NCBI RefSeq assembly: GCF_963921235.1
Contig: NC_086097.1
Coordinates: 53,756,001 to 53,820,000, forward strand
Reading direction: 5' to 3'
Source of the DNA: Mobula hypostoma
Taxonomy: Eukaryota
Length of the DNA: 64,000 bases
In this document: piece after piece, positions 16,442 to 43,550 of the stretch
How the letters are laid out: the number at the start of each line of letters is the position of its first letter
Position numbering within the stretch: position 1 is the first letter of the stretch
Notes under the pieces: generated by a model
Seen by the model: the letters and a program-made list of their open reading frames with translations, nothing else
Told to the model about the DNA's origin: nothing
The model's database searches: none
Position numbers and translations under genes: made by a program

Positions 16442-19400
16442 TCTAAAAGAAATAGATCCATTGCGCTTTCTACCTCTTTAGATTAATGCAACATAAAACT
16501 GTATATGTGCAAAACATTACCTTTCCCTTCCATAAACCCAAATTCCAAATATAATAACAATCCATAAAAACTTCACTGTTCTAAAGCTTCAGTCTTTTGA
16601 GTGGTGCTCTGCTTCTTTCAGGATAGCGCCTGTGGACCTGTGGTGTGGTATCAGGTTTGGCAGGTGTCTTGTATAAGACAACGTTCTCAGTTTCCGATGT
16701 CACGTTGCTGTCAGTGACATCATCACTGAGAGGCAAGTCCGGTGACTGTGATGTGTCCATTTTGTTGGATGCAGTTGACTCAGGTGTGTTCTTCCTTTGA
16801 GCCTCCAGTATCTGGTCTAGATGCCGTCTCTACGTCTGATCTCCAACATCCACTGTATACATCAGTGGTCCAATTCTTGCAGCTTTCCTACTGGGCGTCC
16901 ACTTGTCTTCTTGGAAATCATGCATTAGGACTTCCTGTCCGATCTCAAAGCTCCTTGTTGCTTCACTTGGCAACTGGCTGAACTGTTTGTTCTGTACTTC
17001 CCTCGACAGATCTGGTTTCAGGAGGTCTGTGTGAGATCTCAGACCCCTGTTCATGAACAGCATTGCAGGTGTTTGATTTGTCGTCGCATGAACAGAGTTC
17101 CGATACACAAAAAGGAAGTTGTCCACCTTGTGCTGTGGAGAAATGTCTTCCTTGTCCATCACGTTCATGGACTTTGAATTAAATTGACTTTATTTCTTAT
17201 GTCCTTCACATACATGAGGAGTAAAAATCTTTACATTACCTCTCCATCTGAATGCACACTGTGCAATTTATACTAACTTGTAATAAATAGTATGTACAGT
17301 AAGATATACAAGAGAACAGTCAATATAGCTTAGAAATACAATTGTGTCAGCGTGAATTAATCAGTCTGATGGCCTGGTGGAAGAAGCTGTCCCGGAGTCT
17401 GTTGGTCCTGGCTTTAAAGCTGCGGTACTGTTTCACCAATGGTAGCAACTAGAACAGTTTGTGGTTGGGGTGACTCAGGACCCCAATGATCCTTCGTTTC
17501 CTTTTTACACACCTGTCTCTGTAAATGTCCTGAATAGTGGGAAGTTCACATCCATGGATGCGCTGGGCTGTCCGCACCACTCTCTGCAGAGTCCTGCAAT
17601 TGGGGTAAGAACATTTCCCATACCAGGCAGTGATGCAGCCAGTCAGGATGCTCTCAATTGTGCCCCTGTGGAAAGTCCGTAGGATTTGAGGAATCACGCC
17701 AAACTTCTTCAACTATCTGAGGTGAAAGAGGCACTATTGTGCTTTTTTCACCACACAGCTGGTATGTACATATCAAGTGAGGTCCTCAGTGATGTATACA
17801 CTGAGGAACTTAAAGCTGTTCACCCTCTCAACCCCAGATCCATTGATGTCAATAGGGTGAGCTGTCTCCATTCCTCCTGTCATCCACAACCAGTTCCTTT
17901 GTTTTTGCGACATTGAAGGAGAGGTTGTTTTCTTGACACCATTGTGATGGTGATGACCTCTTCTCTGTAGGCTGCATCATCATTATTATTTGAGATAAGG
18001 CCAATCAATGTAGTATCATCTGCAAATTTAATTAGCAAATTGGAGCTGTGGGTGGTGACACAGTCATGAGTATACAGAGAGTAAATGAGGGGGCTTAGGG
18101 CACAGCCCTGAGGGACTCCTGTGTTGAGGGTCAGAGGGGCAGAGGCGAGGGAACTCACTCTTACCACCTGCCGTCGATCTGGCAGGAAGTCCAGGATCCA
18201 GCTATACAAGGCAGGGTGAAGGTTGAGGTCTCTGAGCTTCTTGTCAAGCCTCGAGGGAATTGTGGTGTTGAATGTTGAACTGTATTTCAAGAACAACATT
18301 CTCACATTAGCTTCCCTCTTCTCCAGGTGTGCAAGGACGGCGTGTAGAGCTGTGGCTTGAAGGTTGGGATAAACCTTTCAGCTAACCCATTCATTACTGA
18401 GTGGCGAGGAGCTGACTTGATGCCATTTTTCTTCATGAAGAGTCAGGATTGTTCTGATGTGTATTGTGGTCTGTTGTCACTCACAATTTGTTCTGGTAGT
18501 CCTCAGAGCAGAGACATTCTTTGCTGAGGTGGTTGACTTCATTGGTATAACCTCTGGCCACGTTGAATGAGCATCCACAGCAATCAGAAGCATACAGTCC
18601 GTAAGTAGCCCAACACAGTCAATATGTACTCTTTGCTGTGGTGACAACGCTCACTCCCATGGGTGAAACACAGCCTATGGGGACACATTTTGAACTTTTT
18701 AGCATCCCCAATAGCTTTTGGCTAAGCTTTCAATCTGTTTATTTATTACCTTCTCAAACACTTTCTCATTAGCATCAAGTAGCTGTGACAGCCTCTGGTT
18801 AGTGCTACCACTTGGGCTGCAGTTGCCTGTTGATGCCACACTGATAGCTTTGATTAAGTGCAGGTCTAGTTGGATTTTTCTTAATCATTCACATCCAAAA
18901 AGTGTTGACTCTCCTCTTTTCAATACATAAAGCTCTAACTGTTGTTTGGTCTCCATATGTCACACTTAATTTCAGTTTGCCTTTGGAAAACACTTTTTCG
19001 CCTGTGTAAGTCTTTAGCATCATTGAGGTCTTCCCTAACAGTATCTTAGAAAACACTCTGTTGTAGTCAGCCTCTGGGATTATGGACAAACCTGACCCTG
19101 TATCCAGCTCCAATTTCAGTTTCGCACTGGACACATCTATTATGATCCAGATGATTTTGTGATCTACTTCAATTATACTATGCAGTTCTAGGCATGACAG
19201 TTCACTTTTGTCAGACTCTATGTAGTCTGATTCTGTTTTACTTTCGGTAACTTTATGGATTTGCTTAGTTTTGTGTTTGAGTCTTTTCACTCGGTTGTGT
19301 TTTTTGTCTGCCTTGCACATTCTCTCTATGTAACCTTGTCTGTGACACTTTCTGCAAACTTTTTCTTTGAACCAATAGTCATTTGAATCATGGGAAGATT

Positions 19401-20319
19401 TGCCACATCGATAACATCTTTGGCATTTTGCACCATTCAGGGACATTTTGTGCATTTCACATTCTAACCTCCTTTTCTGTAGTTCTGCAGCAGCCTTTGT
19501 TGTAGTCCCTATGGACATTGCAATGGTCAATGTCCATTCTAAGATTAGGTTTCTTTTAGTCGCTTTGACTATGTATGCCGCTTAAAAGTCTGCCCCTTAA
19601 TGCATCAGAAAGTCCATCTCTAAAGTCACAACACTGGGAAAGTTTGTGCAGTTCTGCAATGTACTCAGAAAGGCTTTCATCTTTTGACTGGTTCCACTTG
19701 TAAAATCTAAATCTCTCGGCCATTACCAGTGGAATTGGGCTCAAGTAATTTTGAAAAATTGTAACAATTTTGTCGAACATCTTACTTGTTGGCTTTCTTG
19801 GGCTCATTAAGCTAAGAAGTGTAGGGGCTTTCTTTTATTCCTCCACGTCATTTGCATTACAATACAGTTCCACCCTCTCGATATATGACTCCCAGTCTTC
19901 TTTAGTGCTATCAAATTCGTCAACTTTTCATATTGAAGCCACCAGCATGTTATTTTCACTTTAAATTCAGTGCATCTTTCACTGTTACTATGCACTATAC
20001 TTGTGTGTTTGTTGTCATCTGTGACGGCCTTCCCGTGCTGTTTAATATCACCAACAGCACCGACAGTCGTCCTGTAACTGTCGGTGCTGTTGGTGATATT
20101 CTCTGACACTCAGGTTCGCACTCGTGGCCAAGTCGTTGTGTCTGAGGACAACTACATATATATACTAAATAAAAGCACGCACACAGCAGACCGGTTTAAC
20201 TGGTTTATTCACATTGCAGCGAGAGAGAGTGAGAACAATGTACATACACAGACAGCAGATCAATTCGTAGTTCTAAGGGGAGAATCATTGCTCTAAAAGA
20301 AATAGATCCATACATGACA
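16442..20319 (-). mobile_element. Gypsy LTR retrotransposon (Mag-like), RT/RNaseH-less, copy 1; 3' LTR mostly deleted
   Basis: 5' LTR ~20134-20319; PBS TGGCCACGAG next to it; gag (AERFRFY..QSKDESLSEYIAEL), two CCHC-type knuckles, protease LELDTGS, integrase (FLFVYRNSVHATTNQTPAML); 3' LTR remnant 16442-16465. Confidence 0.88.
17179..18355 (-). mobile_element. 5'-truncated Rex1/Babar LINE nested in Gypsy copy 1 integrase
   Basis: WILDFLPDRRQVVRV..TGVPQGCALSPLIYSLYTHDC..KFADDTT and GTIESILTGCITAWYG; ttgaa at both junctions; copy 2 lacks this insert. Confidence 0.92.
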
Positions 20320-22854
20320 GTAGGCATTCTACAAATTTCTTGGGATCTGACTTGGGATTCTCTTGGGATCCAGCACCAACCTGATTTTCCCTATCTACCT
20401 GCATATTGAAATTGCCCATAGCTATCATAACATTGCCGTTAATACATACTTTTTCTATTTCCTGTTGCAATTTATATCTTACATTCTGGCACAGTTTGGA
20501 GGCCTCTATGTAACTTCTACCAGTGTCTTTTTATCTGTGCAGTTTCTCAACTCCACCTACAAGGTCTCTCCATTTTCCAGTCCTAGGTCACTTCTTTCTA
20601 AGGATTTGATTTCATATTTTACCATTCGAGCCACTCCACCCCCTCTGCCTACCTGCCTGTCCTTTCAATACAATGTGTATCCTTGGATGTTAAGCTCCCA
20701 ACTATGATCTGATTTCAGCCACAATTCAGTGTTGTCCTCAATGTCATACCTGCCAATCTCTAATTGTGCTACAAGATCATCTACCTTATTCCATATACAT
20801 ATACCGCGTGCATTCTAATATTTATCACCATCAGTCCTGTAGTCATCACCCTTTTCAACTTTGCCTCCATATTACATTTCAACACATCCCACTAATTGCA
20901 ATTTTGCCCTATCATCTACCTGTCCTTCCTCACAGTCCTATGACACACTATCAACTTGTATACCACCTGGCCCACCCTCAGCTCTATCACTCTGATTCCC
21001 ATCCCCCTGCCAACTTGGTTTAAACCTACGCCAACAGCACCAGCAAATCTGCCCGCAAGGATATTAGTCCCCCTCAGTTTTAGGTGTAACCTGTGCATTT
21101 TGTATAGGTCAAACCTTCGCCAGAAGAGATTCCAATGATCCAGAAATCTGAAACCATGCTCCCTGCACCAGTTCCTCAGCCACTAATTCACCTGGGATGT
21201 GGTACTAGGAGTAGTCCGGAGATTTTTACCTTGGAGGTCTTGCTCTTCAGACTCTTCCCTAGCTCCCTATTCTCATTATGCAGGACCTCTTCCCCTTTCT
21301 ATCTATGTCATTGGTGCCAATGTGCACCGTGACTGCTGTTGAGAATCTTGTACAGCCACTCTGAGATGTGCTGAAGCCTAACATCTTAGGGGACAACACA
21401 CCATCCTGGCTTCTCTTTCATGGCCACAGAATCTGCTGTCCATCCCCCTAACTATTGAGTCCCCTTACAGTAACACTCTGCCTGACTTTACTGAGCTTCC
21501 GAGCTGGCCACCTTGCCACAGGCCTGGCTGCTGTTGCTGTGCCCTGATGGGTTAACCCTCCTGAAGCAGTATCCAAAAGGGCTGAGGGGGAATGCCCTTT
21601 CTTCATAAAGAAGTAGTCAGATCCATATAAAGCACACTATATATCATGATCGAGTTACCTGGTTATATTCTAAAGGGCTTCTAGATCCATTTTCTGAACA
21701 ATGGGTGAGGCAGATTCGCTCAATGTCTATTTTGCAGCTTGCTTTGTAATCCTGGAATGCACAATTTGAACTTGGGACTCCTACTCTTGGTCTCTTGGTC
21801 TATCTCTATAGATGGATGAAATAATTCAAGATTTTTTTTTCCATTTAGATGCTAACAATTCACATGAGATACATACCCTATACAAATCTGCAAACTTTAT
21901 GAGCATGGACAATATTTATCATAGATTTCAAGAACATGATACACTATAACTATTACTTTATGTTTCTTCTTTCATGTGTTTTCTATTTTTATTAGTAGTA
22001 AAACATAGTCTTTAATGAATGAAGAAATCACACCTCAACCTTTGTTAAAACATTGGCAGATCTCGTAATGTCTATATTCTCGTTCATCCACTGAGCTACA
22101 CCACTGCATCTTCCTGCAAGAATTAAGATTGTGGTGAACTTGCTACTTGGAAAGTTGCCAGATGACAAATTCAAGGCATTTGAATTCGCCTTCAACGCCG
22201 GTAAAATCTGCCATTTCCATTGGAAAAGAAATGTAGCTATTCCTAATGCAAAGAAACCTGGTCACTTCAGGAAGAAAATAATGAGTGCCAAACCAGCAAC
22301 AGCTTGGAAGCATATTCAAAATAAGTTAAGAACCACAGGAATTCATGTTCATGGTGAACTTGCAAACTACTGGGTGAATACACACAGTGACCTTGAAGGA
22401 TGGAATCACAATGCACGCCCTTGTATGGTTCTCGGTGTAGCAGCAACAGTTACCATATTTTGTGTCACATCTCTTTGTGAAGTGAAGGACACTTAAATAG
22501 TACTCCTCAGTAAACTTAGAACAGAAAAGTGCCTTGAAGATCCACTGTGTCGCCTTCCTCTGTCAGCTTTTAAGCTGCTTCTCCTATCCCAGTCTGCCTC
22601 ATTCCTCCCTCTTGTCATTCAGGTATCTAATTCAGGAAATAATATTCCCTTAATTGAAGTCAGAAATCTGTTCGCTGGAAGAAAAAAAAACCTGATGTGA
22701 AAATGGTCTAATAGGACAGATGTTCGAGACTACCATGGACATGGTGAATGCCCTAGGGTGGTTGTCAGCCTAAAATGGATCTGGAATCGGAAAAGGTAAA
22801 TTAACAACTAACCAATGTGCTATTGATCAGCCTTTTTAAACGACACTGTTGTCT

Positions 22855-23325
22855 GTTGCAACACACACAAAATGCTGGATGAACTCAGCAGGCCAGGCAG
22901 TATCTATAGAAATGATTAAATAGTCAACGTTTCCGGCTGAGAACCTCCTTCAGAACTGAGAAGGAAGGGGGAAGATGCCAGAATAAAAAGTTGGGAGGAG
23001 GAGGAGGAGGAGGAGGACAGCTGGAAGGTGATAGGTGAAGCCAGGTGGGTTGGAGAAGAAGGAATCTGATAGGTGAGGGGAGTGGACCACAGGTGAAAGA
23101 GAAGGAGAAGGGGAAGTGATGGTCTGAATGTAAAGCCATATCCTGGGAACAGATGTGGCAGAGGTGAAGAAACTGAGAAAAGGAAATAGCATTTTCACAG
23201 GAGATGGGGTGGGAAGAGGTATAGTGGAGAAAACTGTGGGAATCAGTAGGTTTATAAAAGATGTTGGTTGACAGTTTGTCTCCAGAGATGGAGACAGAGA
23301 GATTGAGAAAGGGGAGGGAGGTGTC
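22855..23325 (-). mobile_element. Penelope-like element remnant
   Basis: acacacaaaatgctggatgaactcagcagg end shared with 1400-1440; hammerhead-like motif at 22921-22958; purine-rich tract. Confidence 0.8.
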
Positions 23326-24958
23326 AGACTATTGTCTGTTACTGCCTCAATTTACTGACCAGGTTATAATGTGGAGAGTTTGGCTTCTGGGCAGAGCAAT
23401 TTTATTCAATCTCAATGAGCCTCAAAGGAGTCAGCTTTTTTGAAATCTTAAAGCCCTGTAAAACAAGATAGATTAATTTTTTAGTCAAAACATACAAGAC
23501 TGAACCTTACTCCTCCTTGTTATATATATTGTGTATTTTGTCTTAAGATTTTAGTGGTTGCCTCTTCAAAATTCGATCACTGTACTTCAGAAGTTGTTAA
23601 AGCAACTAAACCTACGGTATGCCCATCATCCTGGCCTACAGTTCTGACCGCATTAATGTATGTAGGAGACAGAAGGAGTCTTGTTAATTCATGCTTGTCC
23701 AGTGGATACCTACATTATGAAAGACACATCTTAGCTGCCTGTCAACTGGGAATGCTGAGAATCCCAACCACTGCTGCCCAACAATTGCACTCCTGGACTC
23801 CCGGATATCAGTCTCAGCCAGGTAGAAATGAAAACGGTTCCACAGAAACTGAACTCTTTTACAGAGACTGGATCTCAGTTTTTTCACTCCCACTAGATTC
23901 CTGGTGAACTTCTGCAAGTGTGCTGGAAAACTTCAGACGCTGTCTTCAACCAAGACATAATGTTGTGAGGTTGTTATGATGGTCTCTCTGGTAACAGGCT
24001 TAAGAAGGGCATAGCACATAATTTTTATATATGCAGACTTCATCTCTGGTTCGGCTTATGTTTGACTAACAGTTCCCTTTTGAATTTGAGGTGCCAGTTT
24101 TCAAAGTCCATAAGATTCCAGTAATTCCTTCCAAGATTAAAAAAAAAGTGCCTGTCTCTTTGGTCTGAGAATTGATAGCAGGAGAATTACACAGAAAAGT
24201 GACTTATGAAGTAACTAACATGAAATTTGGAGACATTTTGGAAAGAATGGATAGAATAAAATTCTTGAAAGTATGAAAAATACTTTCATTTCTTACAAAA
24301 TTGAGGCTCCGTTTTGGTGATTCAACATTACTTTCTGCCTGGGGGAATCTCGCGGACCCTGGTCAATCCTTGAGCCTCTGAATAGTGTTACCTTCCATCT
24401 GGAGACTCCTGCTGAGATGAGGGCTGGATCCCCAGGGTGCACCTCGATATGAGAATGTAATCAGCTGCCATGGTGCCTATAAAATGGGTAAAAACTTTCA
24501 AATTGCTTATGGGACTGTTCAGTCTATCACTCTGAGAGCAGTTAAACAACTCCAACCACCTGGAAACATTTCTGCTCCCTCTCAATAACCTGGGAACACT
24601 GGATGCCTGAACCTAACAGTTGTCCCTTGTGCTCTATATTAAAGCAAAAGGAAATAAAAAAAAATTTATAATGTATTTTTCATATATATGCATATACACA
24701 ATATTCTACCTGAATAATAAGGAATGCTGACCTCGGAGAGAAAGTGGGTCAGGGATTGGGAAGAAGCTGAAATGGTAAAGCAAGATTGGTGGAGATCACA
24801 AAAATATATCCCTGAGCTGCCATCCGCCGTCAACTTCAAAACAAAAACCAATAAGTTTATGGGAAATCCAGAATGTTGTGCGCAATTAATGAAATTACAT
24901 TGTTTCATTCAATTTTTTAAAGTTACGACTGCTTTACTTGATCACAAAGCCAAAAAGA

Positions 24959-25881
24959 ATATCTACCTTTTAAATATATTACTGTTGTATCACAGTTAAA
25001 TTGCTTATCATCTGTGTAGTAAGTTCAATTCTTGTTATGAATTTTAATTGATATTTTATATGAATACCGTACTGTTTTTGAAACCCAGCATGTAGATTTA
25101 TGGAAGCATAAAATGACTGAAGGCCATTATCATATATGCTTGCTGTTAGTTAACACATGTAGACTGGCAGCAGCTCATTTTCATCAGGGGAGGCTGGGAC
25201 TCACAAAGGAGATGCTGGGAGTTATGAATGCCAGGCTCCTGAGGATACATAGAGGCAAAATTGTCAGCATTCCTCATCATTACCATGAAACTGACAATCT
25301 GTGGTCTCCCTTTGCCAAGTTAAACACAGAAATCTGCTGCAATCATATCCTGTTTCTCAGAAATTGACATTTTCGAGGATTGAAATCCTTTTAAAATTAC
25401 TGAGTTGACTTTAAGGTTTAATGCAATTTTCTTTCTGCAAAGGCTTAAGCCTTGTTGAATGGCAAGTATCAACTTCGTGGCATGAGTCTGAATTACTGCT
25501 GAACAACTCTCCATCCCTAAAATTCCTCAGTCCAATTATTTTAAAGTTTGGTCTTTAAAAAGCTCATTAAATTTATTTTATTAAGTTTTGCTTGCTGTGT
25601 CAACTTCAACCATGCACTCATGAAAATATACCAATCTTTTTTATGCTCCTGGTAAAATGTTTGTAAAATTAATTTAAAATATGTGAACTCTGGTTCCTGT
25701 TTTGGTTCCTATATCTACCCTTTTAAATATATAACTGTTATGTCACAGTTAAATTGTTTATCATCTGTGTAATAAATTCACTTCTAGCTTTAAATTTTAA
25801 TTGATATTTTGTATGAATACTTTACTGTTTTTGAAACCTAGAATGCAGATTTATGGAGGCAGAAAATGACTTGAAGGCCAT
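24959..25881. repeat. Dispersed direct repeat pair, ~170 bp (24959-25127 and 25711-25881)
   Basis: atatctacc..ttttaaatatat...cacagttaaattg..tatcatctgtgta...ttttaattgatatttt..atgaatac..tactgtttttgaaacc...gatttatgga...aaaatgact(t)gaaggccat present twice with scattered substitutions. Confidence 0.9.
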
Positions 25882-25919
25882 GTGACTGGCTACTGCTGAT
25901 AACAGCAGTGTTGCTAGTT

Positions 25920-27210
25920 GCCTGATGTACCATTCAGCTGTACCTATAATAACATCCCTCCATCTTCTGCTGGCAGAGCCAATTTTGAATCCAATCTACC
26001 AAGCCATTGTGCATTCCATAAGCCCTAATTTTATGGATCATACCGTGAAGGAACTTGTTGAATGCTTTCCTCAAGTCCGTGTATACGTTGGCTGCCCTAT
26101 CCTCTATCAGTTTTGTCACCTCCTCGAGAGACACAGTCAAGTTTTAAGACATGACCTCGCACACAAAGCCATGCTCGCATTTGTTAACATGTCCACAATT
26201 TCACAAATGCACATAAATATTATCCCCAAGAAGCAGAATCAGGTTCATTATCACTGTCTTAGAATATGTGAAATGTACTGTTCGTTGCAGCGGTACACTG
26301 CAATTACTACACTGTAGTAATTACTATAAATTACAAAATCAATAATTAATATAAAAAGAAATGAAGCCCTGTTCATGGGTTCACGAACGTCAGGAAGGAG
26401 ACATCAAGGGAACACACGCCAGTACTCATCAGGGGATCAGCAGTGAAAAGGTGAGCAATTTCAAGTTCCTGGGTGTCAACGTCTCTGATAATCTATCCTG
26501 GGCCCAACATATTGAGGCAATTACAATGAAGGCAGCACAGTGTCTATATTTCATCAAGAGTTTGACAGGCCAAATCTCCTCAAACTCCTAATGAAGTACA
26601 GCCACTGGTATGCATCTTTCATGATTGCAAATGTGTTGAACCCAGGCCAGATGTTCTGAGATGTTGATATCTAGGAACTTCAAGCTGCTCACTCTTTCCA
26701 CCACTGACCCCTCAATGAGGCATGTTCTTCCAATTTCCCCTTCCTGAAGTTGACAATTAACTCATCGGTCTTGCTGATGTTGAGTGCAAGGTTGTTGTGA
26801 CACCAATCAACCAGTTGATCTAGCCCACTCCTGTACAAATCCTCAACACTATCTGAGACTTTACCAACAACAGCTGCGTTGTGTCATCTGCAAATTTGTA
26901 GATGACATTTGATGCACTGAGACAGGGCTCACCAGTTAATAATTACTGGCTTATCCATTAACAAAGTGGCAATATTGGCAGCAGTCCAAACTTCTGGGCC
27001 ATCATTTCTGGTTAAAGAGGATTCAAAGATCTCTGTTAAAGCCTCAGCCTCTTCTCTTGCCTCCCTCAATAACTCAGATTAGGTTCCATCAGGTCCTGTG
27101 GACATACCAACCTTAATGTTCTTCAACAGGTTCAACTGCCTCTCCCTCTTAATATCAGGATGGCTTAGAAAATCAACATACTCCCCCCTAATCTCACAAT
27201 GCTCCATGTC
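25920..27210. mobile_element. Mosaic of old CR1 (minus) and Rex1 (both strands) fragments
   Basis: CR1 YTDLRKAFNKFLHG..WIQNWL at 25934-26140; Rex1 EKVSNFKFLGVNVSDNLSWAQHI at 26400-26570 (+); Rex1 minus piece at 26600-26910; CR1 GPDG-like piece at about 27000-27200. Confidence 0.7.
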
Positions 27211-27379
27211 TATGTGATGGCAGCCATTTTATGATAAAGACGTAGAAACATTAATACAGGAAATATGCAGTAATACGCAAATCCCCAGGTTCAGTTATTA
27301 GGTAGTGCTGAATCTTCAGTAAATTGTACCAGTGAAAGAGATCTCAAATTGTAATTAAGTGTAGATGAAACATGATACC

Positions 27380-30300
27380 TGATGTGTCTGTGCATGACTA
27401 CGTATATATTAAATAAAAGCATGCATGTGGGAGATGGCTTTAACTGGTGTATTCCCATTGCAACGAGAGAGAGAACAATGTGCATGCACAGGCATCAGAT
27501 CAATGCGTAGTGCTAAGGGGGGAGGAACAATTGCTCTAAAAGAAATAGATCCAAACCTTACATTTCCTCCCCCTTTAGATTAATGCAACATAAAACTGTA
27601 TATGTACAAAACATTCAATTTCCTTTTCATAAACCCATAATTCAAATAAACATGCTTTCACAATAACAGTCCATAACTGTTCTAAAGGTTCAGTCTTTCG
27701 GGCGGTGCTCTGTTTCTTTCAGGATAGTGCCTCTGGACCTGTGGAGTGGCATCAGGTTTGGCAGATGTCTTGTCAATGATAACCGCTCTCGTTGCGCCTC
27801 TGGACCTATGGGGTGACATTGGGTTTGGTAGGTGTCTTGTCTATGACAATGTTCTCAGTTACTCATATCATGTTACTGTCAGTGACATGATCATCACTGA
27901 GAGGTAAGTCCGGTAACTGTAATGTGTCCATCCTGTTGGATGCGGTCGTTTCAAGTGTGTTCTTCGGTTGAGCATCCAGTATCTAGACAACATGACGTCT
28001 CCATGTCTGATCTTCTACATCCACTGTGTACATCAGTGGTTCAGTTCTTGTAGCTATCTTACCGGGTGTCCACTTGACTTCTTGGTAGTCATGCACTGGG
28101 ACTTCCTCTGAAATCTCAAAGCACCTTGCTGCTTCACTTGGCAACTGACTGAACTGTTTGTTCTGTACTTCCCCCTGGAGGTCTGGTTTCAGGAGGTCTA
28201 TGCAAGATCTCAGATTTCTGCTTATGAACAGCATTTCAGGTGTTTGATATCTCGATGCATGAACAGAGTTCTGATACACAAAAAGGAAGTTGTCCACCTT
28301 GTGCTGTAGGGAAATGTCCTCTTTGTCCATCTAATTAATGGACTTCTTGAAGCTTTGGATAACCCTTTCAGCTGACCCATTGATTGTTGGGTGGTGAGGA
28401 GCTGACTTGAAATGTCTGATGCTATTTTTCTTCATGAAGACTTAGAATTCTTCTGACTTGAATTGTGGTCTGTTGTCGCTCACAATTTGTTCTGCTAAGC
28501 CATTACTGGTGAAGATAGCCCTAAGAGCGGAGACAGAGGTGGCTGACTTCAGTGGTATGACCTGTAGCCACTTTGAATGAACATCCACAGCAATCAGAAA
28601 CATGAAGTTCATGAATGGCCCAGCAAAGTCAATATGTACTCTTTGCTATGATAAAGATTACCAGTCCCACAGGTGTAACAGTGCCTGTGGGGGTGCATTT
28701 TGATCTCTTTGGCATCCTGAATAGCTTTTGGCCAAGTCTTTAATCTGCTTATCTATTTCCTTCTCAAAAACCTTCTGATTAGCATTAAGCTGCTGGGTCA
28801 GTTTCTAGTTAGTGTTAGCAGTTGGGCCGCCTTTGCCTGTTGATGTCACGCTGATAGTTTTGATTGAGTGCCAATCTAGTTGGATTTTTCTCAACCATTC
28901 ACATCAGAAAAGTGCTGGCCCTCCATTTTTCAATACATAAAGCTCTAACTGTTGTGGTTGGCCTCCATACGTCACATTTACTTTCAATTTGCCTTTGGAA
29001 GTCTTTAGCATCACTGAGGTCTTCTCTAATGGTATCTTAGAAAACAGTCTGTTGTAGTCAGCCTCAGGAATCATAGTCAAAACTGACCTTGCATCCAGCT
29101 CCAATTTCAGTTTTACACTGGACATATCTATTGTGATCCAGATGATTTTGTGATCTATTTCAATTACGCTATGCAGTTCTAGGCATGACAGTTCACTTTT
29201 ATCAGACTCTATGTAGTTGATTCTGTTTTACGTTCTATAACTTTATGTATTTGCTTAGTTTTGTGTTTGAGACTTTTCAATCTGTTGTGCTTTTTGGCTG
29301 CCTTGCACATTTTCTCTATGTGACCTTGTCATAAAACAAGTACCCAACTTTTGCTACTTAGGAAGCTGGGTGACATCAAATGGCAGGTGCGACATGGACA
29401 TCAAAAGAAGAATAGGGATGGCAAAAGACACCTTTACAAGAATGAAGAGTATACTGACCAATACTAAACTAGGCATGACAACCCGCCTCAGAGTACTGAA
29501 ATGTTACATTTATCCAGTTATGTTATATGGATCAGAATGTTGGACAATATCTAGTAACATGAGGAATTGAATTGTAGCAACAGAGATGTAGTTTTTGAGA
29601 AGGATGCAAAGAATATCATGGATGAAATGAGTATCTAACGAGGATGTCATGAACAGAGCAAACACAAAAAGAGAAATAATGTATGAGGTCATGAAAAGGC
29701 AATGTAACTTCATTGGACATGTGACTGGGAAAGAGGAGTTAGAATGCACAGTAATTATGGGAAAGGTTGAAGGGAAGAAAGCAAGAGGAAGACAAAGACA
29801 AATGATGATGGAGACAGCAGCCAGAGAACTGAAAACGAATACCAATGAATTGATCCACTTGACCCGAAACAGGAGTGTGTGGGTCATGGCAGTCAAAGCT
29901 CAAACTGGGCATGGCACCTGATGATGATGATAATGATGACCTTGTCTGTGACACTTCCTGCAAACTTTTTCTTTGAACCAACAGTCATTTGAATCATGGG
30001 AGGATTTGCCACATCGATGACATCTTTGGCATTTTGCACCATTCAGGGACATTTTGTGCATTTCACATCCTAACCTCCTTTTCTGTAGTTCTGCTGCATC
30101 CATTGCTGCAGCCTCTATCGACATTGCAATGGTCAATGCCCATTCTAGGGTTAGGTCTCTTTCAGACAGTGGCCACCTTTGAGTGCTTTGACAATGCAAG
30201 CCACATAAAAGCCTGTTCCTTAATGCATTGGAAAGTCCATCTCTAAAGTTATAGTACTAGGAAAGTTTGTGCAGTTCTGCAATGTGTTCAGAAAGGCTTT

Positions 30301-30939
30301 CATCTTTTGACTAGTTCCTTTTGTAACATCTAAATCTCTCAGCTATTACCAGTGGTTTAGGGCTCAAGTGATTTTGTAATATTTTAACACTTTCATTGAA
30401 TGTCTTGCTTTCTGGCTTTTCAGGGGTTACTAGTTTGTACTTCATTAAACTAAGAAGTGTAGGGGCTTTCTTTTGCTCCACCACGTTGTTTGTGTTACAA
30501 TATAGTTCAACACTCTTGATATACGACTCCCAGCCTTCATTAATGCTATCTATTCATCAGCTTTCCTGACTGAAGCCATCGTCATGTTATTTTCACTTTA
30601 AATACAACATATCTTTCACAGTTACTCACAAGTCTGTCGACTTTCTCAGGCTGTTTAACTCGCATTGTTTTGTCCCATAACTGTCGGTGCAGTTTGTGAT
30701 ATTCTCTGACATTAAGATTCATACTCATTGTCAATTTGTTGTGTCTGTGCGTAGCTACATAAATATAAATAACAGCACACATGTGGGAGATGGCTTTAAC
30801 TGGTGAATTCACAATACAGCTAGAGAGAGTGAGAACAATGCACATGCGTAGACCGGGTCACGCGCAGACAACAAATCAATGTGTAGTAGTGGGGGGGTGG
30901 AAGATCATTGCTCTAAAAGAAATAGATCCATGCATTACA
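27380..30939 (-). mobile_element. Gypsy LTR retrotransposon (Mag-like), RT/RNaseH-less, copy 2; both LTRs and 5-bp TSD ATACC
   Basis: 3' LTR 27380-27562, 5' LTR 30737-30939, TG...CA ends; PPT aaagggggaggaaa at 27563-27576 (minus); TSD at 27375-27379 and 30940-30944; knuckle CHRCGKSSHDSNDC, protease LELDARS, integrase HIDFAGPF. Confidence 0.93.
29331..29936 (+). mobile_element. 5'-truncated RTE-clade LINE nested in Gypsy copy 2
   Basis: DIKRRIGMAKDTF..RLRVLKCYIYPVMLYGSECWT and GKVEGKKARGRQR; (GAT)n tail; perfect 10-bp TSD tgaccttgtc at 29321-29330 and 29937-29946. Confidence 0.93.
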
Positions 30940-31875
30940 ATACCCATGCTTTGGCCAGTTTGAACAAGTTTACATTAAGATGTGCTCAACTGAACACTTT
31001 GGAAGAAAAGCACCAGTTAGCGCTGTTCCAAAACCAAGGAAAATACTGCACCCGATTGCAAGCTGAAGCAGGGTTCCTGTCAATGCTTAAATGAACGGAA
31101 CCCAACCCCCAACGTCCATCCCATAGGGCAGCATCCTACCAACATTAAGCTTGTAGCAAGGGCATGTAAATGTCTACCCCTATTGTATTGCACACTTCAA
31201 CCTGTACTGAAAGTCATTTTGAACTCTGGAAGAAGAACTGCAACAACACTTCTGCATTCATTGAAAAGCAAAGTATCGGTAGTGAAAGCTAAACCATACG
31301 GACCAACAACCAACCCAGACAATGCCTACACTATGTCAAATTAATCGATCTTATCCAGGCCTTTGGGATTTGCAGTACTGTTGCTCAATTTTTCAGTGCT
31401 GAGGGGGCATTTGGCAGAGTTGTTAATTATGTTGCTGTAGGAATCTGTGAGCACAATTGTTGGATTCAGACAGATTTATTCTCAGTTGTGATGTATGTCC
31501 TCTTATATAGACCGCACCAAAAATAAATAATGATTTATATTTTGTTCCCACGCTCAGTCAAACCAGTAATGGATAACTGAACACAGGATAAAGACGAACA
31601 GGTTTCAAGTTGCAGTGAGGAGTCTCTAATTCCAGGTAGGGGGTCGTAGATATACAGTAGAAAAAGAAATTTGGGGGAAAAAAAACAAACTTACCTTTGT
31701 CAACAAGTATTTGAAATATGAAAACACTGTCATTCAGGTATATTTATACACATTGCTAGAATAATCAGAAAATTGCGATGAAAATAAATTAGGCTTGGAA
31801 AACAATGACGTCAGCATGATTTAAAAATTATACTGAAGCTTAACTATGTACGACGATGTCCAGTGGTCACAAGAC

Positions 31876-32198
31876 GTACCATAGTCATCATCACACATAA
31901 CGTTACCAGCTACATCATCACATATAACGTTACCATTGTTATTATCACATATAACTTTACCATATCATCACACATAACGTCACCAGCTACATCATCACAT
32001 ATAACGTTACCATTGTTATTATCACATATAACTTTACCATATCATCACACATAACGTCACCAGCTACATCATCACATATAACGTTACCATTGTTATTATC
32101 ACATATAACTTTACCATATCATCACACATAATGTTACCAGCTACATCATCACACATAACCTTACCATAGTCATCATCATACATAATGTTACCAGCTAC
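31876..32198. repeat. Minisatellite with 77-bp higher-order repeat (27+27+23 bp subunits)
   Basis: accagctac recurs at 31905, 31982, 32059 and 32136 (period 77) and at 32190; subunits share ataac(g/t)ttacc..atcaca. Confidence 0.93.
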
Positions 32199-33092
32199 AA
32201 GACAGGAATTATTGTAGGTCAATAAAAACTCTGGATAGTAAAAGGCATTTCTCTCACATTAGAGAGAAAAGAAAAATGTACGTAGATAAGCATGTGAAAA
32301 TTGAATTTGAAGGCCTAGTCAGTTTTAAAAGAAGCCCAATAATTTCTTTCTGTGTTGTTGTTGAACTTACAGAAATCAAATATTTTGCAACTTCTTTGAT
32401 AGTCATGGAATCATTTAGGCTAGGAACATGCCCTTCAGCCCACTATGTTTCTGCCATCCTTCTACACATCTATAGTCATTCTATCTGCTGTATCATACAC
32501 TCATCACACTGTCAGATCAGCATTCATTTACACTTCTCTTCCCGCTTCATACTGCAGCCGATCACTTTTGCACATCCCTTAGTTAGTTGCGTCTTTGCCC
32601 TGGCCATTCTTACTTCTGGTTACCTTACAGGGTGGGTCAGGCCTTCTCCCTTTCAGGTCTGCCTGATCTCCACCTGTCTCACACTTCGTTCTCCCTTCTC
32701 ACTTTGTTCATGTTTTAACCTACCTGGTGTGCTGGCTCACTCCCCTGCACCCCTTCACATTGCTTGCTCCACTTCCAATTAGCTGCTATTTCTGCTTCAC
32801 TCTGTGGCTGATTAATGTGGCACGTTCCTGGGTTAGTTGCCCCCTCACTCTGTCCCTGGTTTACCCGACATGTTCCACCAAACTGCTGCTCTTTCAGCTG
32901 CCCGTATTGTATATCCAATTATCCTCTCTACACTGTGACAGCTTTTCTTATGTAAGCTTGTGCAATATTTACAAAGACTTTCTCAAAAGGGCTAAATAAC
33001 TGCATCATCAGCAACCCAAAATTCACTCCAAATATAGAAAGCCAATCAAACTTCCAAGATGAATTCACCTTTTGTGTTAACCCATTTGTAAA

Positions 33093-36712: not shown

Positions 36713-38399
36713 AGGGTCCCAGAAGTGCTCAGAATAAGTTCAATGGAGGCATCACAAGTACTTTATAAAGCTGCAATATTACATAATTGTTTTTATATAC
36801 TAATCCTCTTGAAATGAGTGCTAACATCGCATTTGCCTTCCGCACCACAGACTCAACCTGAAATTTAACTTTTAGCAAATCCCGCACAAGGACTCCCAGG
36901 TCCCTTTTCACCTCAGATTTTTGAATTTTCTCTCCATTTAGAAAGTAGCCTACCATTTATTTATTCTACCAAAGTGCATGATCATACACTTTCGGACACT
37001 GTATTCCATCTGCCACTTCTGTACCCATTCTCCTAATCTGTCTAAGACCTTCTGTATCTTCTCTACTTCCTGAAACCTGCTCGCCCCTCCACCTATCATT
37101 CACAAACTTTGCAACAAAGCCATAAATTCCATCATCCATGTCATTGACATATAATGTAAAAAGAAACGGTCCCAACACAGACCCTTGTGGAACATCACTA
37201 GTCACTGGCAGCCAACCAGAAAAAGCCCCCTTTATTCCCACTCTTTGCCTCCTACCAATCAACCACTACTTTATCCATACTAGTATATTTCCTGTAATAT
37301 TTCTTCCTCTTTGGGATGTTTACATACTGTGCCTTCTGAGTTGCTTCCAGAAATTCCAACCATTACTACTCCACCATCATCCCTGCCAGTGTTCTTTTCT
37401 AATCAATTCTGGCTATCTCCTCTCTTATGCCTCTGTAATTCCCTTTACTCCACTGTAATACTGATACATCTGATTTTAGCATCTCCTTCTCAAATTTCGA
37501 GGTGAATTTGCTTATATTATGATCACTTTTCCTGAAGAGCTCCTTTACCTTAAATTCTCTAATCAATTCTGGTTCATTGCACAACACCCAATATGGAATA
37601 TCTGATCCTGTAGTGGGCTCAACCATAAGCTGCTCTAAAAAGCAATCTCATAGGTATTCCAGAATTTCCTCCTCTTAGAATCCAGCACCAACCTAATTTT
37701 ACCATTCTACCTGCATATAGAAGACCCTTCATGACTATTGTAACAGTACCCTTTTGCCATACATTTCCTATTTCCCATTGTAATTTGTAGATCACATCCT
37801 TGTTATTGGTTGAGGGTCTATATATAACTCCCATCAGGGTCCTTTACCCCTGCAGTTCCTTAGCTCTATCCACAACAATTCAACTTCCTATTAATTTCAT
37901 TTCATTTTTTTCCCAACAGAGCCACACCACCCCTTCTGCCTACCTGCCTGTCCTTTCAATACAAGAGGTGGGGGCATGGGACTGTCGATCAGGGATACTA
38001 TCACAGCTGCAGAAAAGGAGGAAGACATGGAAGGATTGTCTGTGGGTAGAAGTTAGGAATAGGAAGGGGTCAATAACTCTTCTGGGTGTTTTGTATAGAT
38101 CACCCAATAGTAACAGGGACATTGAGAAGCAGATAGAGAGAGAGATTCTGGAAAGGTATAATAATAACAGGGTTGTCGTGGTGGGAGATTTTAATTTCCC
38201 AAATATCGATTGGCATGTCCCTAGAGCAAGAGGTTTAGATGGGGTGGAGTTTGTTATGTGTGTTCAAAAAGGTTTCTTGACACAATATGTAGATAAGCTT
38301 ACAAGAGGAGAGGCTGTACTTGATCTGGTACTGGGAAATGAACCTGGTCAGGTGTCAGTTCTCTCAGTGGGAGAGCATTTTGGGATAGTGATCACAATT

Positions 38400-40320
38400 A
38401 GAACCATAGAACATTACTGCACAGAAACAGGCCTTTTGGCCCTTCTCGGCTGTGCCAAACCACTTTTCTGCCTAGTCCCACTGACCTGCACCAGGACCAT
38501 ATCCCTCTACACACCTCTCATCCATGTATCTGTCCAACCTTTTCTTAAATGTTAAAAGTGAGCCCGCATTTACCACTTCATCTGGCAGCTCATTCCACAC
38601 TCCCACTACTCTCTGTGTGAAGAAGCGCCCCCCCCCATGTTCCCTTTAAACTTTTCCCCCTTCACCCTTAACCCACGTCCTCTGGTTTTTTTCTCCCCTA
38701 GTCTCAGTGGAAAAAGCCTGCTTGCATTCACTCTATCTATACCCATCATAATTTTATATACCTGTATCAAATTTCCCCTCATTCTTCTATGCTCCAGGGA
38801 ATAAAGTCCTCACCTATTCAATCTTTCTCTGTAACTCACTTTCCCGGCAACATCCTTGTAAATCTTCTCTGCACTCTTTCAACCTTATTTATATCCTTCC
38901 TGTAATTTGGTGACCAAAACTGCACACAACACTCTAAATTCAGCCTCACCATAACATTCCAACTCTTATACTCAATAGTTTGATTCACACACAGAGAGTG
39001 GTGAATCTGTGGAATTCTCTGCCACAGGAAACAGTTGAGGCCAGTTCATTGGCTATATTTAAGAGGGAGTTAGATATGGCCCTTGTGGCTATGGGGGTCA
39101 GGGGGTATGGAGGGAAGGCTGGGGTGGGGTTCTGAGTTGGATGATCAGCCATGATCATAATAAATGGCGGTGCAGGCTCGAAGGGCCGAATGGCCTACTC
39201 CTGCACCTATTTTCTATGTTTCTATGTTTCTATAAAGGCCAATGTATCAAAAGCTCTCTTTACGACCCTATCTACCTGTGACGCCACTTTTAGGGAATTT
39301 TGTATCTGTATTCCCAGATCCCTCTGTTCGACTGCACTCCTCAGTGCCTTACCATTAACCCTGTATGTTCTACCTTGGTTTGTCCTTCCAAAGTGCAATA
39401 CCTCACACTTGTCTGTATTAAACTCCATCTGCCATTTTTCAGCCCATTTTTCCAGCTGGTCCAAATCCCTCTGCAAACTTTGAAAACCTTCCTCACTGTC
39501 CACTACACCTCCAATCTTTGTATCATCAGCAAATTTGCTGATCCAATTTACCACATTATCATCCAGATCATTGATATAGATGACAAATAACAATGGACCT
39601 AGCACTGATCCCTGTGGCACACTGGCAGTCACAGGCCTCAAATCAGAGAAGCAATCCTCCACTACCACTCTCTGGCTTCTTCCATTGAGCCAATGTCTAA
39701 TCCAGTTTATTATCTCTCCATGTATACCTAGCAACTGAATTTTCCTAACTAACCTCCCATGTGGGATCTTGTCAAAGGCTGTACTGAAGTCCATGTAGAC
39801 AATATCCACTGCCTTCCCTTCATTCACTTTCCTGGTAACCTCCTTGAAAAACTCTAATAGATTGGTTAAACGTGACCTACCACGTACAAAGTCATGTTGA
39901 CTCTGCCTAATAAGTCCCTGTCTATCCAAATACTTGTAGATCCTATCTCTTAGTACTCCTTCCAATAATTTACCTACTACTGACGTCAAATTTACCAGCC
40001 TATAATTTCCGGGATTACTTTTAGAACCTTTTTTAAACAACGGAACAACATGGGCTATCCTCCAATCCTCCAGCACCTCACCCATAGATACCAACATTTT
40101 AAATATATCTGCCAGGGCCCCTGCAATTTCAACACTAGTCTCCTTCAAGGTCCGAGGAAATACCCTGTCAGGTTCTGGGGATTTATTTACTCTGATTTGC
40201 CTCAAGATAGCAAGCACCTCCTCCTCTTCAATCTGCATAGGTTCCATGACCTCACTACTTGTTTGCCTTATTTCCATAGACTCCATGCCAGTTTCCTTAG
40301 TATTAGTAATTAGCCTTAGT
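38400..40320 (-). mobile_element. CR1 LINE 'B' nested in A, TSD AATT
   Basis: 372-aa RT ORF 39222-40340 (VPQGSVLGPLLFVIYINDL..KFADDTK); AATT at 38396-38399 and 40321-40324. Confidence 0.92.
38986..39230 (+). mobile_element. CR1 3' stub 'C' nested in B
   Basis: QRVVNLWNSLP piece and (TTTCTATG)n tail; near-identical to the reverse complement of 49980-50220. Confidence 0.9.
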
Positions 40321-40549
40321 AATTCTATCTCCTTTACCATAGCATTAGAAAGGGGTAGGAACAGACAAGTTAGGAAAGCGTTTAATTAGCATAAGGGGAA
40401 ATATGAGGCTATCAGGCAGGAACTTGGAAGCATAAATTGGGAACAGATGGTCTCAAGGAAATGTACGGAAGAAGTATGGCAAATGTTCAGGGGATATTTG
40501 CATGGAGTTCTGTACAGGTACGTCCCAATGAGACAGGGCAAGGATGGTA

Positions 40550-43500
40550 TGAGGGTGGTGTTGGCTAATGTGCATAGGGAGCACAGCTATTTGGTAGGAC
40601 AGTTGAGGAACAGTGGAATACTTTCGAAGAGATTTTTCACAGTGCTCAACAAAAGTGCATTCTAGTCAAAAGTAAGGACAGTAAGTGTGGGGAGATCCAG
40701 CCTTGGATAACTAAGGAAATAAAAGATAGTATCAAATTAAAAGCTCGTGTACAAAGTCGCAAAGAGTAGTAGGAGACTGGAGGATTGGGAAAACTTTAAA
40801 AAGCAACAGAGAATAACTAAACAAGAAATAAGGACAGCGAAGATGTAGTATGGAAGTAGATTAGCACAAAATACAAAAACAGATAGCAAAAGTTTTTATA
40901 AAGATATAAAGCGGAAGAGGGTGGCTAAAGTCAATGTAGGTTCCCTAGAAGACAAGAAGGGAAAATTGATATTGGGTGATAAGGAAATGGCTGAGGCATT
41001 GAATGACTATTTTGTGTCAGTCTTCACGGTGGAGGACACGTCTAATATGCCAAAGACGAAATGGGAGGTGAGGACCTTGATAAAATCACTGTCGCTAAAG
41101 AGATAGCGATGAGCAAACTAGAGGGTCTGAAGGTAGCTAAGTCCCCTGATCCTGTTGGGATGCATCCCAGGGTGCTGAAGGAATTGGCGGAGGTTATAGT
41201 AGACGTGTTGGTAATCACTTATCAAAACTCTCTAGACTCTGGGCAGGTCCCGGCAGATTGGAAGACAGCAAACGTCACGCCACTTTTTAAAAAAGGATGT
41301 AGGCAAAAGATAGAACATAGAATAGTACAGCACAGTATAGGCCCTTCGGCCCACAATGTTGTGCCGACCCTCAAACCCTGCCTCCCATATAAGCCCCCAC
41401 CTTAGATTCCTCCATATACCTGTCTAGTAGTCTCTTAAACTTCACTAGTGTATCTGCCTCCACCACTGACTCAGGCAGTGCATTCCACGCACCGACCACT
41501 CTCTGAGTAAAAAACCTTCCTCTAATATCCCCCTTGAACTTCCCACCCCTTACCTTAAAGCCATGTCCTCTTGTATTGAGCAGTGGTGCCCTGGGGAAGA
41601 GGCGCTGGCTATCCACTCTATCTATTCCTCTTATTATCTTGTACACCTCTATCATGTCTCCTCTCATCCTCCTTTTCTCCAAGAGTAAAGCCCTAGCTCC
41701 CTTAATCTTTGATCATAATGCATGCTTTCTAAACCAGGCAGCATCCTGGTAAATCTCCTCTGTACCCTTTCCAATGCTTCCGCATCCTTCCTATAGTGAG
41801 GTGACCAGAACTGGACACAGTACTCCAAGTGTGGCCTAACCAGAGTTTTATAGAGCTGCATCATTACGTCGCGACTCTTAAACTCTATCCCTCGACTTAT
41901 GAAAGCTAACACCCCATAAGCTTTCTTAACTACCCTATCCACCTGTGAGGCAACTTTCAGGGATCTGTGGACATGTACCCCGAGATCCCTCTGCTCCTCC
42001 ACACTACCAAGTATCCTGCCATTTACTTTGTACTCTGCCTTGGAGATTGTCCTTCCAAAGTGTACCACCTCACACTTCTCCGGGTTGAACTCCATCTGCC
42101 ACTTCTCAGCCCACTTCTGCATCCTATCAATGTCTGTCTGCAATCTTTGGGCAACTATAGGCCAGTTAGATTAATGTCTGTAGTCAGGAAAATGCTTGAA
42201 GCTGTCATTAAGGAAGAAATAGCGAAACATTTAGAAGGAGTGGTTCCATTAGACAGACGCAGCATGGATTCAGAAAGGGCAGGTCCTGTTTGACAAGCTT
42301 ACTGGAGTTCTTTGAGGACATAATGAGTGCAGTGGATAGAGGGGAACAGGTGGATGTCGTATACTTGGATTTCCAGAAGACGTTCGATAAAATGACACAC
42401 AAGAGACTTATAAATAAGATACGGATGCATGGAGTCGGAGGAAGTGTATTGGCATGGATAGTGGATTGGTTAACCGATAGAAGGCAGAGAGTTAGTATAA
42501 ATGAGTGTTTCTCCAGTTGGCAGTCAGTGGAGTTGCCGCAGGGGTCAGTGCTGGGCCGGCAGCTGTTTACAACTGATGATTTGGAAGAGGGGACTGAGTG
42601 TAGCATAGCAAAATTTGCTGATGACACTAAACTGAGTGGAATAGCAAATTGTACAGAGGATGTGGAGAGTGTGCAGAGGGACATAGATAGGTTAAGTGAG
42701 TGGGCCAAGGTCTGGCAGATGGAATACAATGTTGGCAAATGTGAGATCATCCACTTTGGAAAGAATAATAGAAGAGCAGATTATTATTTAAATGGTGAAA
42801 GATTGCAGCATGCTGTTGTGCAGAGGGACTTGGGAGTGCTTGTTCATGAATCGCAAAAAGTTGGCTTGCAGGTACAAGTTATTAAGAAGGCAAACAGAAT
42901 GTTGAACTTCATTGCTAGAGGGATTGAATTCAAGAGCAGGGAGGTCATACTGCAACTATGCAGGGTATTGGTGAGGCCGCACCTAGAGAGCTGTGTGCAG
43001 TTCTGGTCTCCAAAGTTGTCGAAGGATATACTGGCTTTGGAGGCAGTGCAGAGGAGGTTCACCAGGTTGATTCCAGGGATAAAGGGGTTAACCTATGAGG
43101 AGAGATTGAGTCATCTGGGACTATACTCTCTGGAGTTCAGAAGAATGAGAGGGGATTTTATAGAAACATACAAAATTTTGAAAGGGATAAATAAGATAGA
43201 AGTAGGAAAGTTGTTTCCATTGGTAGGTGAAACTAAAACTAGTGGACATTGCCTCAAGATTCAGGGGAGAAGATTTAGGATAGAGATGAGGAGAAACTGT
43301 TTTTCCCAGAGAGTGGTGAATCTGTGGAATTCTCTGCCCAGGGGAGCAGGTGAGGCTTCCTCTCTAAATATACTTAAGAAACAGTTAGATAGGTTTTTAC
43401 ATAGTAAGGGAATTGAGGGTTATGGGGAAAAGGCAGGTAGATGGAGCTGAGTTTACAGACAGATCAGCCATGTTCTTATTGAATAGCAGGGCAGGGTTGA

Positions 43501-43550
43501 TGGGCCGGATGGCCTACTCCTGCTCCTATTTCTTATGTTCTTATGTTCTT
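40550..43550 (+). mobile_element. CR1 LINE 'D' nested in A, TSD ATGGTA
   Basis: 386-aa RT/C-terminal ORF 42290-43450; (TTCTTATG)n tail; ATGGTA at 40544-40549 and 43551-43556. Confidence 0.92.
41311..42147 (-). mobile_element. 5'-truncated CR1 'E' nested in D
   Basis: WAEKWQMEFNPEKCEVVHFG..LVRPHLEYCVQFWSP and FFTQRVVGAWNALP; D reads through as ggcaaaaga|tgggcaactatagg. Confidence 0.92.

Follow-up and report, generated by a model that had tools for sequence, protein, structure and literature searches.

Loss of internal coding sequence has been described for a few families of retrotransposons that carry long terminal repeats (LTRs), and these are the closest known systems to the element treated here, a Gypsy derivative without reverse transcriptase (RT) that occurs in two copies in a 64,000-nt stretch of the Mobula hypostoma genome. 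In mouse, the IAP 1Delta1 subtype shares one in-frame deletion of 1.9 kb, is mobilised in trans and encodes a fusion reported to act in cis (PMC6466679). Comparable wheat elements are RLG_Sabrina_SA/RLG_WHAM (with RLG_Wilma) and RLG_Quinta (with RLG_Cereba) (PMC9744471, PMC11302176, PMC5738225). Template switches at microsimilarities are described as causing loss of the internal open reading frame (ORF) (Tan et al., 2016, PMC5131818), and priming by tRNA-Ser or tRNA-Leu is described for Mag-like elements (PMC3286476).

The window, that is, the whole 64,000-nt stretch (contig NC_086097.1, positions 53,756,001 to 53,820,000), contains two minus-strand insertions in which gag and protease run directly into a partial integrase at one and the same point. 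The likely explanation is a non-autonomous Gypsy deletion derivative that originated by template switching and was mobilised in trans by full-length relatives, with no support for a use of the protease-integrase fusion. Both copies are old and dead.

A deletion shared by two insertions

From end to end, copies 1 and 2 are 76-84% identical in nucleotide sequence (one nested fragment of a long interspersed nuclear element, LINE, excluded per copy), and the alignment has no gap across the protease-to-integrase junction. The closest full-length proteins, P0126-P0129, are single-ORF Gypsy polyproteins of 1,311-1,318 amino acids; a full-length element of 4,586 nt, L001, comes from an assembly other than that of the window. 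P0126 shows the Pfam layout protease, RT, RNase H, H2C2 finger and integrase core, which is the order PR-RT-RH-IN, and the matches of both copies cover its residues 1-424 and then 986-1318, with nothing in between. Measured on L001, the deleted block comprises 1,692 nt or 564 codons (L001 1441->3133) and is identical in both copies, the best split falling on the same four positions, 18750-18747 in copy 1 and 28760-28757 in copy 2. The common breakpoint proposed in the first-pass annotation is thus borne out, and both junction peptides quoted there were found in the copies. The features of the two insertions are as follows.

16442-20319, minus strand: copy 1, whole LTR element
20134..20319, minus strand: copy 1 5' LTR, TG...CG, about 185 nt; the host site is CR1-like LINE sequence
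20121..20130, minus strand: copy 1 primer-binding site, TGGCCACGAG, with 1 mismatch to the TGGCGACGAG of L001
18751..19948, minus strand: copy 1 gag, including a CCHC knuckle, followed by aspartic protease; interrupted by stops and frameshifts of its own; corresponds to P0126 residues 1-424
18747..18750, minus strand: copy 1 deletion junction, where RT, RNase H and the His-bearing half of the integrase finger have been lost
18356..18746, minus strand: copy 1 integrase, comprising what is left of the zinc finger and the beginning of the catalytic core
17175..18355, minus strand: 5'-truncated non-LTR retrotransposon within copy 1 integrase, with RVT_1 match
16584..17174, minus strand: copy 1 integrase, C-terminal part
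16442..16479, minus strand: copy 1 polypurine tract and 3' LTR stub of about 25 nt; the remainder is deleted and CR1-like sequence follows
27380-30939, minus strand: copy 2, whole element, 3,560 nt, about 2.95 kb without the nested LINE
30940..30944, plus strand: copy 2 target-site duplication (TSD) ATACC, upstream side
30737..30939, minus strand: copy 2 5' LTR, TG...CA, 203 nt
30724..30733, minus strand: copy 2 primer-binding site, decayed, TGACAATGAG
29937..30585, minus strand: copy 2 gag, 5' part up to the CCHC knuckles
29331..29936, plus strand: 3' end of a 5'-truncated LINE, antisense within copy 2 gag, with (TGA)n tail and 10-bp TSD GACAAGGTCA
28761..29330, minus strand: copy 2 gag end, protease and short post-protease stretch reaching the junction
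28757..28760, minus strand: copy 2 deletion junction, at the point identical to that of copy 1
27685..28756, minus strand: copy 2 integrase remnant, rve match (E 3.8e-7)
27563..27576, minus strand: copy 2 polypurine tract
27380..27562, minus strand: copy 2 3' LTR, 183 nt, 80.8% identical to its own 5' LTR
27375..27379, plus strand: copy 2 TSD ATACC, downstream side

The CR1 label of the sequence around copy 1 is our assumption from its motifs; the nested fragment in copy 1 integrase is presumably Rex1/Babar-like, and the one in copy 2 gag is taken to be RTE-like. Near 27776-27868, copy 2 integrase also has an internal duplication of its own (about 100 nt), and the 5' leader of copy 1 contains a long inverted repeat (20042-20100; self-match 88% over 59 nt) that does not occur in copy 2.

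The pair of LTRs with TG...CA ends and the 5-bp TSD of copy 2 agree with a Ty3/Gypsy element, for which a TSD of 4-6 bp is expected, and four occurrences of the LTR motif were counted in the window against 0.03 expected. As had been noted at first, the element measures about 3 kb without its nested LINE, copy 2 has a TSD of its own, and the differing flanks disfavour a local duplication; the nested insertions, which also differ between the copies, speak against it too. The Kimura two-parameter (K2P) distance is 0.227 between the LTRs of copy 2, and 0.234 and 0.257 between the 5' LTR of copy 1 and those of copy 2; such similar values within and between copies fit a common source from which both inserted at about the same time.

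L001 shares LTR termini, polypurine tract and primer site with the copies, and their primer sites and polypurine tracts align with those of L001, although both signals are decayed in both copies. The primer-site sequence of the first-pass annotation is not exactly that of the copies: the exact TGGCGACGAG occurs in L001, and neither copy has it. Retention of the LTRs holds for copy 2 and, at the 3' end of copy 1, is limited to the short stub. We take the TGGCGACGAG-type primer site to match tRNA-Ser; no tRNA genes were found within the window. The single ORF and the CCHC knuckles presumably liken the element to the Mag clade.

Full-length relatives and the missing block

Despite decay, amino-acid identity between the window copies and P0126-P0129 or L001 amounts to 54-63% in Gag, protease and integrase. 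At the nucleotide level L001 is 67-73% identical to the copies over the shared coding parts, and 80% over one short 3' piece. L001 itself was assembled as a circle through one LTR, with a 55-nt terminal overlap. The closeness to bony-fish elements such as P0129 (Poecilia mexicana) raises the question of horizontal transfer.

The absence of RT and RNase H between protease and integrase, claimed initially from the lack of visible motifs, was upheld by profile searches. The missing block as it stands in 10 relatives was made into a profile, which, run against the six frames of the window, gave a best independent E-value (iE) of only 7.4, and all four control loci were matched (best scores 128-718 bits); a Pfam scan of six junction frames detected no RT or RNase H. 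Neither copy therefore encodes the RT and RNase H that an autonomous element would have.

No intact protein with the junction was found among the 120 listed of 140 matches, in further sets of 67 matches and 9 short matches, or in the best 150 of 23,832 matches, where no best stretch begins before query residue 146. Among 337 proteins inspected, 100 contain both protease and integrase, and in none are the two adjacent at the junction point of the copies. The junction motif had 0 matches in viral contigs, and no relatives of the element were found there. Two RT-less protease-integrase predictions, P0171 and P0244, are unrelated, have an intact zinc finger and may be gene-model artefacts. Two host gene models, P0013 (Mobula birostris SHCBP1 isoform X1) and P0162 (Rhinoraja longicauda EMC2 isoform X1), include a Gypsy integrase or a whole polyprotein and are probably annotation chimeras.

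The integrase remnant

The deleted block corresponds to P0126 residues ~421-985 and includes His964 and His967, both zinc-binding histidines of the integrase. In addition, Cys997 is replaced by Tyr in both copies, at a site where Cys is kept in at least nine of ten relatives. This shared change, although a single site, supports both a single origin and a dead finger. Neither copy has a complete zinc finger of the His-His-Cys-Cys (HHCC) type, a domain described as folding upon zinc binding and as part of the conserved core of retroviral intasomes (PMC11054761). What had been annotated as the integrase zinc-finger region behind the protease is thus its Cys end, both His having been lost. Judged from sequence, the remnant is probably inactive, and DNA integration by it is unlikely.

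Reading frame and decay

In L001 both breakpoints encode Gly-Ile (VFEK-GI-GKL and WWP-GI-DRQ), and the underlying GGCATTG and GGAATTG agree in six of seven nucleotides, a microsimilarity that is the scar expected of an RT template jump. L001 contains 918 microhomology pairs at this level (6/7 nt), and the in-frame share of comparable pairs is 0.36-0.45 in all six settings. Since about 40% of such joins would be in frame by chance, a single in-frame junction is a weak sign of selection.

The single frame reported earlier exists locally at the junction; elsewhere private stops and frameshifts interrupt it, the 668 aligned codons containing 7 stops in copy 1 and 10 in copy 2. Differences between the copies are spread evenly over codon positions (99/93/101), and 14.0% of 0-fold sites versus 17.1% of 4-fold sites differ (P=0.28). 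A Nei-Gojobori dN/dS of 0.57 (Fisher P=7e-5) was considered as a sign of purifying selection and rejected as an effect of transition bias, because neutral simulation reaches it (0.69 +/- 0.10; 11% of 300 runs <=0.572) and the site-class tests are null.

No frameshift is common to both copies. Shared changes at conserved sites are few: 1/55 in Gag, 3/30 in the protease region, 1/14 in the finger remnant, 3/64 in the integrase core and 0/18 in the tail, two poorly aligned far-tail sites being left aside. Most are conservative or of CpG type. Together with the absence of a shared frameshift, this points to a source close to its intact parent and probably open in frame, from which the copies have decayed neutrally.

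Related copies in other organisms

Four public runs, each labelled with a different organism (X1, X5, X9 and X14; 4 of 24 runs), supplied contigs that were placed on 27200-29330. The unique flank is covered by one contig per run at a depth of 7.6-14.3. Over 27 element bins the summed contig depth is 216-13,047 times that of the flank, with medians of 1,109-1,634 in the four runs, and the junction bin, where contigs that merely touch it are counted, reaches 600-791 times flank depth. Related copies probably number on the order of a thousand, all relatives pooled.

The insertion of copy 2 appears to be common to the four labelled organisms. In B, C and E the contigs of the flank seem to continue for 30-60 nt into its LTR (to 27413-27437, as derived from contig-end distances), so that the insertion seems to predate the split of these organisms. 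In organism C, 16 differences are listed over the flank of about 180 nt.

The first-pass annotation had made its proposal depend on the junction occurring beyond the window copies, and it probably does. Records 21 and 22 of run X5 span the junction. They are about 81% identical and show 56 and 51 differences, as compared with 63 and 61 for copy 1 over the same spans, and are probably further junction-bearing copies. Several independent insertions with one breakpoint are thus available: the two window copies and these two bridging contigs. The junction is not among the 24 listed loose contig ends (5,744 more exist), an absence not used as proof because the private 21-nt deletion of copy 2 is also missing from the lists.

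Origin and mobilisation

The proposed history starts from a Gypsy element like L001 and P0126, with one ORF and no env, that would have lost 1,692 nt once. The deletion is observed; its mechanism was most likely an RT template jump between the two Gly-Ile microhomologies. The derivative would have set out with what is still observed in the copies, namely LTRs, primer site and polypurine tract, besides gag, protease and an integrase without zinc finger. Proteins of full-length relatives would have carried out packaging, reverse transcription and integration, RT being necessarily supplied in trans. One old burst probably preceded the split of several related host species, and the two copies show neutral decay since. 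The in-frame join would be a by-product, and the element's own Gag or protease was perhaps made without being needed. The first reading of the locus as a non-autonomous deletion derivative with one breakpoint, independent insertions, retained cis signals and spread by RT borrowed in trans is kept; its suggestion of a useful Gag-protease-integrase product is not supported, given the chance of an in-frame join, the destroyed finger and the neutral divergence.

Several observations weigh against this account or parts of it. Repair at microhomologies at the DNA level could yield an identical scar. Summed depth is no copy number and pools full-length elements and other derivatives with junction-bearing copies. 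Only two of the four listed pieces that reach the junction bridge it, record 23 exceeding it by just 12 nt, and record 31 of run X9, which departs at 28751 with 122 unlike letters, is a candidate for a copy with RT. At one codon position a stop occurs in both copies, with different triplets. Earlier selection would be hard to detect from two copies that stem from a single burst, and their neutral divergence neither shows nor excludes it. Finally, an RT-bearing helper of this genome was not directly seen (no genome-wide search was made), and L001 is a relative of 67-73% identity from another assembly.

The alternative with the largest share of the remaining probability, although itself unlikely, keeps the same derivative and adds that its open frame was selected in cis: translation to the natural stop would have shielded the RNA or tied it to particle assembly, and the fusion enzymes need not have worked. 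The lack of a common frameshift, the single shared stop position and the few shared changes at conserved sites (Gag 1/55, protease region 3/30, core 3/64) agree with it, as does the cis action of the IAP 1Delta1 fusion according to a review (PMC6466679). Against it, a master that has newly arisen from an intact parent inherits an open frame, and one junction is in frame by chance in some 40% of cases. Much less probable is a complementing pair, in which this element gave Gag, protease and an active integrase, and a partner gave RT alone. Conserved core residues are present in both copies at 42 of 64 sites and in at least one copy at 59 of 64, so that most were apparently in the source, but the loss of both zinc-binding His and the change of one Cys in both copies speak against an active enzyme; in retroviruses zinc binding is described as folding the HHCC domain, a part of the conserved core of the intasome (PMC11054761). 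There is also no purifying signal, no partner was seen (again with no genome-wide search), and the helper need be no more than a full-length element like L001.

It is similarly hard to credit that the same block was lost twice at a microhomology hotspot, in two full-length insertions, or that one copy converted the other. Microhomology does exist at the breakpoints, and both copies have the same orientation, with about 7 kb between them. However, L001 has 918 comparable pairs, and identity at the junction is not above that elsewhere (61 differences in 272 nt). This reading is further opposed by a radical change beside the junction common to both copies and by the further contigs that span it. 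A single template-switch derivative mobilised by full-length relatives remains the preferred explanation.

On this explanation an old, probably abundant non-autonomous Gypsy family is added to a vertebrate genome, one that RT-based annotation would miss or misclassify, and its insertions common to several species are usable as lineage markers. A bolder proposal, doubtful at present, is that one vertebrate lineage harbours a swarm of Gypsy derivatives without RT, which owed their success to a polyprotein frame open to the natural stop, and that the element is its cargo-free member. If true, cis translation would license trans-mobilisation, extending the IAP 1Delta1 effect to Gypsy elements; if frame-keeping proved to hold generally for this genome's derivative families, control of LTR-element parasitism by cis translation could be tested from sequence alone.

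Other features of the window

Outside the two copies, a 677-codon open frame with a DUF4371 match (E 1.6e-20) lies at 56532-58565 on the minus strand; by assumed association it is possibly a hAT-type transposase or a ZMYM-like gene. Between the copies, a 140-codon open frame (23485-23907, plus strand) resembles a host exon, and Pfam, PDB and Atlas gave it no identity. A tandem array with alternating 27- and 50-nt spacing lies upstream of copy 2 (31810-32220), and several LINE frames with RT and endonuclease, of 254-412 codons and in both orientations, occupy 37791-45450.

Comparison with known systems

In the literature covered (Repbase/Dfam and most subscription papers lying outside it), no description was found of this family or of any Gypsy family with only Gag, protease and integrase. 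The fish Gypsy polyproteins annotated as 'K02A2.6-like' (P0126-P0129, L001) have full RT, RNase H and H2C2 finger and belong to other assemblies, so that they represent relatives of the helper and not the helper itself. Like the chimeras of PMC5131818, the element lost its internal ORF at a short microsimilarity (median 6 bp there, 6/7 nt here), and the products are non-autonomous LTR elements; unlike them, it would reflect a plain internal jump, with no host mRNA captured.

The wheat elements Sabrina, WHAM and Quinta are high-copy Gypsy sequences, as the present family may be, that keep GAG or GAG-protease and have no RT. Their primer site and LTR termini agree with those of an autonomous partner; the window copies have theirs in common with L001, which comes from another assembly. 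The wheat elements are described as having no integrase coding sequence and long-lived intact ORFs, whereas the window element kept most of its integrase and shows no maintained ORF. IAP 1Delta1 resembles it in having one shared internal deletion (1.9 kb there, 1.7 kb here), an in-frame fused ORF, and non-autonomous, trans-mobilised copies. It differs, according to the same source, in being an endogenous retrovirus that is still active, lacks part of gag and pol and has a reported cis role, whereas in the window element gag and protease are whole, all of RT and RNase H and half of the integrase finger are gone, and the copies are dead.

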